In this document: positions 7,165 to 11,000 of the stretch, one piece after another
Position numbering within the stretch: the first letter of the stretch is position 1
Layout: every line of letters begins with the position of its first letter
DNA from: Antedon mediterranea
Lineage: Eukaryota > Animalia > Echinodermata
NCBI RefSeq assembly: GCF_964355755.1
Contig: NC_092674.1
Location: forward strand, 24,986,001 to 25,050,000
Direction: 5' to 3'
Length of the DNA stretch: 64,000 nucleotides
The notes under the pieces: model-generated
Seen by the model: only the letters and a program-made list of their open reading frames with translations
Told to the model about the DNA's origin: nothing
The model's database searches: none
Position numbers and translations under genes: made by a program

Positions 7165-8093
7165 AGTGAAAAGTGAAACTCACAGAACTATTTACAATCC
7201 ACCTCCTGTATTTCTCAGTCAAACAAATCTCCCAAAATCCTTGGATTCAAATTTAGGCTCACAGAAAAGCAAAAAAACAAATAGTGAGCCTTCAGGACTA
7301 TCTGGCCTTAACCAGAAGGATACTACTAGTGATAGCTCACAGAGGTACGAGAGAAAGGGCAGCAAGTCTAGATCTGGCAGCCATAGCAGTACTTCTTCGG
7401 CGTTTAGTACATTGCTAGAACAACAGGCTCCACAGCAAAGCCTTATTGAGGCGTTACTCAACGAAACCGCACCAGAAACTGGTGAACTTGATCTTTGTGG
7501 ATCAAATTTGAACAATAAGCAACGAGGTGTTGAACCAGAACTGTCGGAACCAGCAGCAAAGAGAACAAAGACTACGAAACAGCCTAGTACTGGCAGAAAA
7601 CGAGCGTCTAAATTTCCACAAGGAGAAGTCTCTATTACGTGTTGTTGTCTGCGTTCTTACACAAGAAATAACCCCTGCGAGTTCGAAGCATTAGATTATT
7701 ACAAACCTGCGCGAAAAGCCAGCAACACGAGTACAGCACGTGGTAAGGTCCCCTCGCGGGGATCAACGAGCCAAACTAAGTCTGCGGCTGCAGCATCAGC
7801 AAATAATAAACCTCAACCGTCAGAATCTAAATCCAAATCGGATTTGGAAAAAAAGAAGACAAAATTAGGAGAGGTATCTGGTAGTAGTAGTGGCCAAACT
7901 AATATTGGGGCTAGGCCACGTGTGACTAACAGTCAGACCACGGTGAGGGCAACCAGTAGTACCGTTGGGGAAAGTAAATCTGGACAGTCTGTACGATTAA
8001 AATTACGTTCATCAACTACTAAACAAACGCCAAGTCATAGCAGTTCTAATACGCAAGCAAACAAAGGAAAGGCCAAGTTTTCGGCAACTAAAG
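7165..8093 (+). CDS. TRIP12: TRIP12 large N-terminal exon encoding a Ser/Lys/Thr-rich disordered region
   Basis: Polypyrimidine tract and AG at 7163-7164; open frame (ORF 7115..8170); donor AAG/gtacaa at 8094. Splices in frame to 8402-8629 ([21 protein letters not shown]), which resembles vertebrate TRIP12 TTGSCASTSRRGSG..AARTDE. Confidence 0.8.
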
Positions 8094-11000
8094 GTACAAT
8101 ATGCACATTTATTCAATTTTCAAATTTGTATTTAAAAACTCATTCACAACTGCATGCAATAAACATATGAACATTTTTTTTTACTGCATGCATTTTGGAC
8201 ACATGCCAGTTGAGTTTTGAACTAAAGTTCATTCTTTCTCTGCAAAACAATGTTTTAATTGAAGCCATTCTGGTCTACCCAACCTCTATCTCATTCTTAT
8301 CTCATTTGTTTTTTTTTCTTTTTAACTCTTCAATATGTTTAAGTAGAACTTAATGTATTTCTTTTTAAAATCACATTTTGTGTAACTGTGTATTGTTGTA
8401 GGTAAAAGCAGAGCTCGAAATAGTGGTAGTAAGGCAGATAATTCTCACACCAAGCCAACAGACAGCACAACGGGCACTTGCGCAAGCACACGGGGAAGGC
8501 GCAGCTCAGGAATGAGCAAGCGCAACTCGGGAGGTACAGGCCAGTTGGACCCTATGTCTAGCAATGACACTAGTGAGGGTGGTAGCAGTAACGCTCGCAC
8601 TGACGAATCGGCCGCAGGAGGAGCAGCAGGTAATTTATAACGCAGTACGGTCGACTCTCCCAATACTGGAATCTCTGGAAACCAGACTTTTCTTGAGGTC
8701 CAAACGGTCCCATATTCATTTTTACCATTATAAACCAGACTTTCCTGAAAACCAGACATTAGGCCAGCCCAAATGTGTCCAGTATTTGGAGTATTTGACT
8801 GTAAAGTTTTACATTATAAGATATAAATAAATATATATTTAAAATGGAAACTGAGGTTATTTTGAGTAGACTATTGACATACGTAGCCACAGTGCACGCC
8901 TACCATGGTCTGCAAACCGGGAAACAATCCACCTCAATTTTAATTTATCGTCCACATGTGCATTGTATGTAACGGTTTTACATCCCATCTGAAGGATGAG
9001 GCAGTAAGAATAAAGTACCTTGCCTAAAAGATATAAGCATTTATATAACAAGTCTCAAACCCATGCTGATAAACTGATATTCCGTTACGCCTTATTGCTC
9101 GCATTATATTCATATCATACCTAAACATTATATGAATACATTTTAAAACGAGAATGATGAAATTTACACTGAAAAAGAATTACTACTGACATTTATTTTG
9201 CATCAGTATTTTTTAATTGTTTACTGCATTGTTAATATTTCATATATTAATATTGTTTTAAAAGTAACTGGCATCATCAAAATATGACAAACGTAAACTT
9301 TTATGAGGAGGCTAATAAGAGGGGGTGAAAAAAATTGTTAATGTTTTATTGAAAGTATGACTTTGGAAACTTGCCAACTAATAAACATAGCAGACTAGAA
9401 TAATAACAATAGGCAAAATATCAAAGGTTGGTATGAATGCAGTTTTATTTACTTATATTCAGAGGGATGTTTTCATTTTTTAGCATATGCCCCATCATCT
9501 GTTTCCACTGTACATATTGAGCCACTTAATTAACACTTGATTGCAGAGTACTGCATGCATATTCATGTCAAAGGTTACACAGTTTAATTGAAAATTTATT
9601 CTTTAGGAGGTTATTATTATATTGTATTAATAAACATGTAACGTATACCTTAGTATCAGCCATAAATAGGTGTGTTGTTATTATAAGGACCTCTCCTTAT
9701 CCTCCCATTTTCATTAGTTTATAATTAGTACTGGTACTGGTTCAAATAACCGTCTCACAGGGACATCTGGTAGCCTTTGACTTAAAGTTGGAATTTGGAT
9801 GCGTTACTTTTAAATGTACAGTATGAGAGTGACTACTACCAAATTGCACAGTCACAAAACAACTTATAAAACAGTTCATATATACAGTTAAAACATTGCT
9901 GGGAATTATAAATTTCTGTTGAAGCAGGCTCCAATGAAGTTGCATCTAGTGGAATTATGTAATACATTTCTTAGACAGAGCACACCTAGCGAAAAAGTGA
10001 CATGTGGCTAGAAAGGCCCTACAGTAAACAATGCATGAGGTGTCAACATAGTAGTAATGAATGGTTTATTCTTATTTTTATGGGCTAAAATATACCTAAT
10101 CTGGTATAAAAAGGTCTTATTTGACATCATGTTTGACAACATACCAACAGTCATATAATTTTTCATCTAAATTAAAACTCTGACCTAAAAAGTTTCCACC
10201 GTAAAATGCACAGTAGATTATGAGGAAGTGTACAAATGTTAGGTGACACTGACTATAATATCCACATCACAATTATTACATCCCTTCTAATTAATTATTA
10301 ATCATGCTGCATAACTGTAAGGAAATTTGTACCCTTTTTATTTATTAATAGAGGCGTTATGTTCCATTTAAAATAATGAATTTTATTGTGAGTCACTGTC
10401 ACATAGCAAATTTCTTAAATACAACATAAGGTAAGTTCATAAACGAATTAAAAACCAGAAATCTGATGTGCCTGTATAAATTTTTACTATGCATACTTGG
10501 CCAGCAATGTCAATATATTTGTTATCAGTACCAGTTAGGTATGTTGCAGTTGTATAGCTATAGTTGGGACAATAATTGTAAATAGTGTAAGTGTTTTTTG
10601 TTGTTATTTGTATTACACTGTATAGTGACAGTGTCAAGGATGGCTGCACTACAATTGGTATATTAGGCCTTGTTCTTTATTCTCAACTCAGAGCAGGCTT
10701 ATTTTTTTTTTTACACAATGAATTTTGAGATTGCGCGGTTAACTTGTTGAAGCTTACACAGACTACTGTATAAAGCCATCTCATTTCAGTGTTGACTTCG
10801 AGTTCATTGGTTTATTTAAGTTGGAAATTTCCACCGTGTCATGTAGGTGATTTATAAACTAGGGTGTATCATGGTTGGATTCAAGTTTGTGCTAGTCTAT
10901 TGATATAAAACTTGGTATGTTACAGTAAGCCTAGCATTTTATTGGTTCAGTAAGCCTAGAATGTTATTGGTTTTGTATATTTTAGCAGTTCCAGATGACT

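Follow-up and report, generated by a model that had tools for sequence, protein, structure and literature searches.

A candidate ACG start codon near the end of a conserved ATG-free corridor in TRIP12, and the lipid-anchored proteoform it might produce

Background

In several well-known cases the start codon used decides which form of a protein is made. The p150 and p110 forms of ADAR1 involve long scanning to a downstream AUG; in AAV, the ACG start of VP2 is followed by the AUG start of VP3; p61 of Hck starts at a CUG that exposes Gly2, which is myristoylated; and a small upstream ORF steers ribosomes beyond the main start of the C/EBP isoforms. The leaky-scanning proteoforms in the accessible parts of Benitez-Cantos et al. 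2020 (PMC7397870) and of the study on CDC20 (M1/M43; PMC11014515) share with the locus described here a weak first AUG, a stronger in-frame second AUG and weakened out-of-frame AUGs, and in the PMC7397870 cases the second AUG tends to be close to the first. TRIP12 was not found in the 8 searchable supplement files of PMC7397870. Near-cognate starts that change both the N-terminus and the location of the product, as we propose for TRIP12, include the CUG of MRPL18 and the ACG of yeast ALA1; an ACG can bring in Met, and under heat shock initiation at the downstream CUG of MRPL18 deprives the protein of a targeting signal (Kearse and Wilusz 2017, PMC5666671, accessible part).

The gene analyzed here is the same gene as those of the TRIP12/ctrip/Ufd4 HECT E3 ligases, with which it shares TPR_TRIP12_N, WWE and HECT. 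According to the accessible sections, TRIP12 has been studied as a nuclear, chromatin-bound ligase whose long forms the common antibodies cannot separate (PMC7697007), and its disordered N-terminal region bears NLSs and binds chromatin (PMC7697007, PMC12876695). In their available parts, these two papers deal with splice isoforms only and mention no alternative initiation, ACG start or lipidation; nor did a search of literature listings turn up a paper on alternative initiation or lipidation of TRIP12.

Results

The TRIP12 locus of the feather star

The window, that is, the whole stretch of 64,000 nucleotides of Antedon mediterranea DNA that was analyzed, contains the TRIP12 features listed in Table 1. 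The protein P0299 is identical to the translation of the first two exons (385/385) and contains the Pfam domains TPR_TRIP12_N (TPR/ARM), WWE and HECT, in that order, which identifies a TRIP12 HECT E3 ligase. In a contig from run X1, which is RNA by guess but is nevertheless spliced, 8093 is joined to 8402 (GT..AG) and 8629 to 12884; X1 sequence spans 7163-8091 and lacks the intron that precedes 8402. A search with the protein of the desert exon among proteins of 542-2000 aa gave no match, the full-length relatives being longer and found later, and an Rfam search of 5500-13100 likewise gave none.

A non-AUG start of the long form, which the preliminary description had suggested, was rejected because P0299 begins at an ordinary Met 44 codons 5' of the exon at 7165, in agreement with the loose end of the X1 contig. 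The in-frame intron ATGs at 7115 and 7121 were discarded as starts as well, being removed by splicing in X1. According to this gene model, the long form initiates at an ordinary AUG outside the window.

Table 1. Features of the TRIP12 locus in the window
Feature	Position	Strand	Comment
TRIP12 coding exon	7165..8093	+	P0299 residues 44-353; basic, Ser/Thr/Lys-rich, disordered; preceded by a phase-2 intron
ATG desert	7165..8511	+	1039 nt spliced; inferred scanning corridor
Next TRIP12 coding exon	8402..8629	+	Desert end, ACG site and two in-frame ATGs
ACG with A at -3 and GG at +4/+5	8467..8474 (ACG 8470-8472)	+	Thr377 of the long form; predicted non-AUG start
Ten codons after the ACG	8473..8502	+	With initiation at the ACG, Gly2 and Ser6 would give a predicted N-myristoylation start; Cys4 and basic residues accompany them
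First downstream in-frame ATG (Met391)	8512..8514	+	Preceded by G at -3; predicted to act in this species as the catch-all second AUG; kept in sea stars
Second in-frame ATG (Met405)	8554..8556	+	Context weak in this species; counterpart in the alignment of the vertebrate K-M-A-D Met, after which the human acetylated peptide starts
Earliest out-of-frame ATG 3' of the desert	8564..8566	+	Out-of-frame ATGs resume from here
Following TRIP12 exon	12884..12970	+	Disordered linker ends here
Remaining TRIP12 (TPR/ARM, WWE, HECT)	15210..38889	+	~30 exons; tblastn of P0121; Pfam on P0299

A desert of ATG triplets conserved across animals

Spliced together, the exon at 7165-8093 (929 nt) and the first 110 nt of the next one (8402-8511) form a single open frame of 346 codons without a forward ATG in any frame, as the preliminary description had noted. 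Its other counts are also reproduced: there are 6 CAT triplets in the first exon, ATG reappears at once in the flanking introns (7121 and 8101), and the first two ATGs after the desert are both in frame. The ATG-free genomic gap from 7121 to 8101 (980 nt) is the largest in the window, the runner-up being 468 nt. The aligned pieces of the remaining TRIP12 (5418 nt) contain ~68 out-of-frame and ~54 in-frame ATGs, approximate counts because the pieces overlap intron edges. The earlier estimate of about 16 expected ATGs was too generous. Dinucleotide shuffles of the desert yield a mean of 9.1 (no ATG-free outcome in 5000), and codon-order shuffles yield 7.65 out-of-frame ATGs (0/20000 without any); when only synonymous codons are exchanged and the protein is preserved, 2.3 ATGs are expected and zero is reached in 901/20000 shuffles (4.5%, P 0.045). 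Given this last rate, the single-gene case depends on orthologues. The spliced mRNA contains a lone out-of-frame ATG, ~20 nt 5' of the 7165 junction, with a pyrimidine at -3, no G at +4 and an ORF of 2 codons; the upstream exon carrying it is outside the window, and 30 of the 179 contig letters were read.

In seven orthologous deserts (2212 codons), we found 3 out-of-frame ATGs compared with 45.6 expected (z -7.8); pooled P values are approximate because the sequences are related. L020 was dropped as a duplicate of L019, and L004, which has a one-base frame break, was left out of the pooled shuffle. ATG is the most depleted of the 64 trimers in these deserts, in which CAT, GAT, TGA, GTG and CTG show no depletion, and each of the three surviving out-of-frame ATGs shows a pyrimidine at -3 and lacks G at +4. 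When the orthologous deserts are taken singly with the protein fixed, 5/6 are not significant (P 0.16-0.37) and that of L019 is (P 0.002). The codon choice is skewed as well: the NAT:NAC ratio in the deserts is 3:13 before G versus 153:90 before non-G (P 8e-4), and this bias runs the opposite way in the remaining CDS. On the 3' side of the next in-frame Met (M2), an equally disordered linker contains 20 out-of-frame ATGs in 1143 nt. At the protein level, Met occurs 3 times in 8208 residues between the first Met (M1) and the motif described below in 24 proteins, as against 18 times in 1453 residues of the internal disordered region in 8 of these; the longest Met-free run is 1120 aa, in the fly protein P0129. 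The short rotifer-like L015 and L016 have no desert, and internal Mets are present in fly P0143 and spider P0175. Altogether, comparison of the orthologous sequences supports selection on the absence of ATG in all frames across animals. The preliminary description had proposed that selection keeps the stretch transparent to scanning ribosomes; of this, the selection against ATG is borne out by the orthologues. Its claim that human TRIP12 is Met-free from M1 to the KMADPES segment was checked against proteins of monotreme, reptile, frog, fish and shark origin and against a human peptide.

An invariant ACG near the end of the desert

The same position in the distal part of the desert is occupied by ACG at every one of the 22 orthologous sites, which range from coral-like sequences to those of fish, with A at -3 and G at both +4 and +5 in 17/17 non-redundant sites. 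The A at -3 is constant even though the residue it helps to encode varies (Thr, Lys, Asn or Ile). Elsewhere in the same frames, ACG accounts for 128/860 Thr codons and for 8/59 other Thr-Gly pairs, and 0/107 invariant four-fold columns in five full-length orthologues have one shared codon, which means that synonymous sites are saturated. The survey covered 69 loci, 48 of which have no motif site, most of these not reaching that exon; two non-orthologous pattern matches (L007:3871 and L016:3360) were dropped, and L003 is the sole vertebrate DNA in the comparison, the human side being covered by the peptide only. In the P0140 and P0151 groups, Leu replaces Thr at this site and, judging from protein-level data, could be encoded by CUG. 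The motif is absent from mite-like L004, L017, P0128 and P0136, fly P0137 and P0143, and spider P0175. L014 has an uninterrupted frame of 1802 codons, with an in-frame stop located 9 codons 5' of the ACG, and nevertheless retains ACG-G-S-C-A-S 5' of the first in-frame AUG.

A downstream hairpin is a common aid to, but not a requirement for, non-AUG starts; in 11 sequences, no consensus pairs were found that would indicate a conserved hairpin 3' of the ACG, and single RNA folds after it range from -0.4 to -22.9 kcal/mol. The accessible parts of published start-site and N-terminus tables do not list a TRIP12 ACG start, and those based on acetylation cannot reveal a myristoylated one; the HeLa start-site table in the supplement of PMC13219423, as far as available, has a single TRIP12 row, 'AUG Annotated'. 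Judging from the nucleotide conservation, it is probable that the ACG serves as an initiation codon.

A predicted myristoylated N-terminus

The conceptual product initiated at the ACG begins with M-G-[ST]-C-A-S, a start of the N-myristoylation type. Conditional on this initiation, Gly2 with Ser or Thr at position 6 is present at 17/17 sites and Cys4 at 15/17 (missing at 2/17), with Arg or Lys among the next residues at nearly all sites. A Cys or basic residues nearby provide a second membrane signal beside myristate. Ser at +5 after Gly is an NMT motif (PMC10696250, accessible part). TRIP12 is absent from two myristoylome supplements, one of which was matched to annotated N-termini only, and larger catalogues may hold the peptide. 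We consider it somewhat more probable than the contrary that the ACG product would be myristoylated and located on membranes.

The flanking AUG codons and a human N-terminus

The context of M1 is weak, with a pyrimidine at -3 in 7/7 orthologous loci (the feather-star M1 is outside the window), and that of M2 is stronger, with a purine at -3 in 7/7. All seven loci also have an AUG 12-30 nt 5' of M1, where 0.18 would be expected in each, the 10-30 nt interval for this count having been picked post hoc, after viewing the data. The ORF opened by this AUG overlaps M1 in 4 loci and ends at or just before M1 in 3, and its peptides are not conserved.

The supplement of PMC5749180 reports a human acetylated peptide that starts with A-D-P-E-S at position 399, is labeled 'unannotated' and was detected in 3/4 samples. 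Since the first residue of this peptide follows the second Met, initiation downstream takes place in humans. The table in PMC5749180 documents, for human cells and tissue, the short form that starts at this Met, which the preliminary description had anticipated as an isoform lacking the basic N-terminus. This form would be without the NLS-bearing, chromatin-binding region. In mitosis, the translation efficiency of TRIP12 is reduced (log2FC -2.8 and -2.5; PMC11014515 Table S2), and weak and non-AUG starts are repressed (PMC11014515, accessible text).

Discussion

A tentative model with three proteoforms

Based on the conserved layout of start codons, we propose that ribosomes missing the weak first AUG, a bypass that the AUG just 5' of M1 may assist, would scan ~1.1 kb of ATG-free corridor. 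A fraction of these would start at the invariant ACG and produce a form with a Gly2/Ser6 myristoylation signal, Cys4 and a basic patch, likely anchored in the membrane, and the remainder would start at the next in-frame AUG and yield the acetylated form without the NLS region. Both starts would thus be fed by scanning of a single mRNA rather than by a separate transcript, and one mRNA would give three proteoforms: a long nuclear, chromatin-bound form, a lipid-anchored ACG form and an AUG2 form, with predicted lengths of about 2100, 1725 and 1710 aa in the feather-star type. We regard it as probable that a scanning corridor with a weak AUG1, an ACG and an AUG2 start yields three TRIP12 forms. 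The preliminary description had proposed dual initiation; its downstream start stands, and its count of two is probably one short, the ACG at 8470 being the likely third. The balance tips only slightly in favor of the complete scenario, in which a non-AUG start hidden ~1 kb inside the TRIP12 CDS, from corals to vertebrates, would be reached by scanning and produce a myristoylated, probably palmitoylated membrane HECT ligase in addition to the long nuclear protein and the acetylated AUG2 form, with their relative amounts governed by how stringently start codons are selected, for instance in mitosis.

Alternative explanations

The most serious alternative, which we nevertheless consider unlikely, is that there are two starts only, with leaky scanning or reinitiation after the upstream ORF leading from AUG1 to AUG2 and the ACG conserved for some other reason. 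The human N-terminus at the second Met fits this scheme, and so do mite-like L004 and L017, which lack the ACG motif but retain both the desert and M2, the run of the desert past the ACG up to the next in-frame AUG at 16/17 sites, and the finding that the tables consulted list neither an ACG start nor myristoylation of TRIP12. It leaves unexplained the invariance of the ACG, the A at -3 under four different residues and the GG at +4/+5, as well as the retention of the motif by L014, 5' of its first in-frame AUG.

Separate transcripts, arising from an internal promoter or exon skipping, could instead give the short forms, with the desert and the ACG as their leader or as an exonic splicing signal by a conserved 5' splice site. 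An intron indeed begins ~19-22 nt 3' of the ACG in L023-L025, L049, L063 and L066, but the ACG is retained without a following intron in the window, L009, L010, L012, L029 and L032. Forms in which exon skipping removes most of the disordered region are known among fish (P0046, P0051, P0052, P0098), human isoform d (1722 aa) is likewise skipped according to the part of its record available, and truncated forms commonly come from downstream promoters (PMC13219423, accessible text). Yet the desert starts right at a consistently weak M1 in full-length transcript-like loci, and the HeLa CAGE rows for TRIP12 that could be consulted (2 of 9; PMC13219423) are upstream of the start codon. We consider such an origin improbable.

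A protein-level effect would also fit the low ATG expectation in the window desert with the protein fixed. In this view, Met and Asn/Asp/His/Tyr-Gly/Ala/Val/Asp/Glu pairs are scarce simply because the region is disordered, basic and rich in Ser/Thr/Lys, and T-T-G-S-C-A-S belongs to the long protein as a motif. Against it, the relevant dipeptides number 120 vs 269.8 expected in the N-terminal region but 57 vs 47.7 in the internal disordered region of the same proteins, where Met is also at its normal level; moreover, codon choice before G is skewed, and conservation of a protein motif cannot keep a synonymous third base constant. These data have already largely refuted this explanation, which is very improbable. 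The least credible alternative is C-to-U editing of ACG to AUG, of the kind that creates start codons in plant organelles: the X1 contig differs from the window at 5 positions, none of them 8471, and ACG is read in intron-free transcript-like loci, although contigs drop rare variants and editing at a minor level could escape notice.

Implications and relation to known systems

If one mRNA also yields membrane and cytosolic TRIP12, as the three-proteoform model holds, cytoplasmic substrates need a second look. Patient variants in the early part of the gene, whether nonsense, frameshift, affecting Met or 'silent' at Thr, would have to be reread: the short forms could survive a stop codon within the desert, but could be lost through a synonymous substitution of the ACG or a newly created AUG. 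The combination of an AUG desert, a terminal invariant near-cognate codon and Gly-x-x-x-Ser is a signature that can be searched genome-wide for hidden lipidated proteoforms.

Scanning over a kilobase that is conserved across animals, as this model has it for TRIP12, would be rare among cellular genes. In the ADAR1, AAV, Hck and C/EBP cases, the non-AUG start makes a longer upstream form or is viral, and none of these is a HECT ligase gene with an ACG start inside its annotated CDS. Unlike the leaky-scanning pairs of PMC7397870, TRIP12 has a gap of ~0.6-1.2 kb in the loci, and of up to 1120 codons at the protein level, with a near-cognate start within it. Unlike the CUG of MRPL18, the TRIP12 ACG would not only remove a signal but also create one, a lipid anchor, and this codon is kept from coral-like to fish sequences.

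Translation starts of the TRIP12 gene

The gene encodes TRIP12, a HECT E3 ligase with TPR_TRIP12_N, WWE and HECT domains (Pfam). Spliced together, segments 7165-8093 and 8402-8511 form a single open frame of 346 codons that, as the preliminary description stated, contains no ATG in any forward frame (hereafter, the desert), and the longest interval without ATG in the window (980 nt; runner-up, 468 nt) falls in this stretch. The expected number of ATGs is 16.4 under a mononucleotide null, 9.1 under a dinucleotide shuffle (ATG-free in 0/5000) and 7.65 under a codon-order shuffle (ATG-free in 0/20000); with the protein fixed, a synonymous shuffle yields 2.3 (ATG-free in 901/20000).

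The protein P0299 (named Antedon mediterranea TRIP12-like) shows 385/385 identity with the two exons and extends into the loose-end peptide of a contig from run X1, RNA by guess. P0299 begins at a Met (M1, AUG1) 44 codons upstream of the 7165 exon, and its following Mets are residues 391 (window 8512; M2, AUG2) and 405 (window 8554). Therefore, translation of the long form starts conventionally, at a codon that the window does not include, and the non-AUG start once suggested for it must be abandoned; the interpretation of dual initiation by non-AUG start or leaky scanning was partly right. In the X1 contig, 8093 is joined to 8402 and 8629 to 12884, and 179 extra letters 5' of the 7165 exon are absent from the window; across 30 of these letters, the main frame is open, with one weak out-of-frame ATG opening a 2-codon ORF. 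A phase-2 intron separates the first coding exon from the second (junction at 7165; split codon Arg or Ser), and vertebrates seem to share it, to judge from fish P0019, P0020, P0039 and P0046.

In each of the seven loci compared, two of which (L004 and L017) are related to one another, M1 carries a pyrimidine at -3 and G at +4 and is preceded by an AUG 12-30 nt upstream (0.18 expected each, for a range chosen after the fact); at M2, position -3 is a purine in 7/7. For initiation at the second Met, the basis is one published human peptide, N-acetylated, beginning with A-D-P-E-S at position 399 and labeled 'unannotated', which was present in HEK293T, HUVEC and substantia nigra and absent from colon; the authors regard such N-acetylation as a mark of initiation (PMC5749180). 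This peptide comes right after the vertebrate K-M-A-D Met, which aligns with window 8554.

An invariant ACG codon

ACG directly precedes the G-[ST]-C-A-S motif at 22/22 orthologous sites, one in the window (8470) and 21 in other loci, two regex matches at non-orthologous places having been dropped; the loci include coral-like L066, mollusc-like L002, arthropod-like ones and vertebrate L003. Among 17 non-redundant sites, position -3 is A throughout, although the codon concerned may specify Thr, Lys, Asn or Ile, +4/+5 is always GG, Gly2 and Ser6 (numbered from ACG) are unchanged and Cys4 is found in 15; nearby third positions vary. In the same frames, ACG accounts for 128/860 Thr codons and for 8/59 codons in other Thr-Gly pairs, and 0/107 invariant four-fold columns share one codon among five full-length orthologues. 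P0140 (moth) and P0151 have Leu at this position, possibly CUG. No conserved hairpin was found downstream of ACG. Fish forms that skip to S-R-R-G-S-G do without the ACG site as well as the disordered region.

The 1802-codon frame of L014 is intact, and its in-frame stop lies 9 codons upstream of ACG; therefore, the motif is translatable in that transcript only from a non-AUG start. L010, L011, L012 and L029 resemble it in layout but may be genomic. This crustacean-like group (with L013 and L032) seemingly has no long frame directly upstream of the motif; its long form may be gone or have become separate.

The use of two starts only, AUG1 and AUG2, is an unlikely reading given the invariance of ACG. 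It is favored by the HeLa table in PMC13219423, where the TRIP12 start is 'AUG Annotated' only, which counts against an ACG start. The motif is missing from mite-like L004, L017, P0128 and P0136, flies P0137 and P0143 and spider P0175; of these, L004 and L017 retain M2 and the desert. Separate transcripts or a splicing signal as the explanation are quite improbable; some lineages have an intron after ACG, which the feather star lacks. The available text of PMC7697007 treats TRIP12 splice isoforms only.

The desert across animals

From 31 taxon-diverse proteins, 7 not matched by the motif pattern were left out; across the remaining 24, the residues from M1 to the conserved motif (8208 in all) include 3 Met, compared with 18 in 1453 for the internal disordered region in eight of these proteins. 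The stretch is Met-free in 163/171 proteins of a redundant, fish-heavy set. A metagenome scan yielded 69 loci, in six of which the frame runs on from M1 without a break (duplicate L020 and frame-broken L004 excluded); their M1-M2 stretches (627-1236 nt) contain 0, 0, 1, 1, 1 and 0 ATGs, and just past M2 there are 20 out-of-frame ATGs within 1143 nt. Pooled with the window, these deserts contain 3 out-of-frame ATGs vs 45.6 expected, the most depleted of 64 trimers. Out-of-frame ATG is avoided in two ways, through the codons chosen before G (3 NAT:13 NAC vs 153:90) and through the dipeptides used (16/259 vs 412/1355). Protein composition as the whole explanation seems highly improbable. The protein-fixed shuffle was not significant for five of the six loci taken alone. 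The seven pooled deserts also show an excess of out-of-frame TTG (53, with 28 expected) and CTG (85, with 65 expected), perhaps as one-step escapes from ATG.

Other features of the window are listed below.

Features of the window besides the ATG-free frame
Feature	Coordinates	Location	Remarks
Cys-rich island, 25 residues	about 7625-7710	inside disordered region	same sequence in two feather stars, flanks diverged
Multi-copy repeat element	5601-6937	intron upstream of desert exon	separate contig in run X1
Several copies of very high-copy dispersed repeat	13560-16290
Tandem repeat	28855-29290	intronic	all three forward frames open
Near-identical tandem copy of TRIP12 HECT-region exon and donor site (35186-35377)	35520-35710		one-base gap breaks frame; either recent degenerate exon duplicate or assembly artefact
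Rhodopsin-family GPCR gene	44382-47131	same strand as TRIP12, downstream	7tm_1 (Pfam)
Possible small single-pass membrane protein gene, open frames	51639-51992, 52594-52884 (minus strand)		no Pfam match

Proposed mechanism

The desert, the ACG codon and the start contexts are conserved sequence features, and leaky scanning past AUG1 to ACG and AUG2 is the likely explanation. We infer that, on one mRNA, 40S subunits would pass the weak AUG1, aided by the nearby upstream AUG, and scan the AUG-free corridor, whereupon some ribosomes would initiate at ACG, in perfect context, and others at the next in-frame AUG. Three products would result: the long basic form, in the nucleus and on chromatin; a form started at ACG, for which myristoylation and membrane binding are predicted; and a form started at AUG2, which would be acetylated. 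RNA editing of ACG, of which the X1 contig has no trace at 8471, is the least credible alternative.

In the crinoid protein P0121, the pI of residues 1-377 is 10.2. In published work on TRIP12, two NLSs are predicted at 73-94 and 136-152 (PMC7697007), residues 325-445 fused to GFP were cytoplasmic owing to loss of the NLS, and constructs without the IDR required an added NLS (PMC12876695). During mitosis, a phase in which initiation at weak and non-AUG codons is repressed, the translation efficiency of TRIP12 falls (log2FC -2.8, -2.5; PMC11014515), which is consistent with leaky scanning but not specific; supplementary file 1 of that study has no TRIP12 row, and the supplements of PMC7397870 and PMC12718117 have no start-site row for it.

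Cys and basic residues near a myristoylated Gly can serve as a second membrane anchor. Were translation to start at ACG, it would expose a Gly followed by Ser at +5, an N-myristoylation pattern (PMC10696250). TRIP12 is absent from the myristoylome supplements of PMC4200515 and PMC10696250, and a literature search without most subscription papers found no paper on its alternative initiation or lipidation.

Leaky scanning and non-AUG starts are already known kinds of initiation (general mechanisms in PMC7397870, PMC13082882, PMC5666671); an internal ACG conserved animal-wide, reached over ~1 kb and predicted to give a HECT ligase a lipid anchor, has apparently not been described before.
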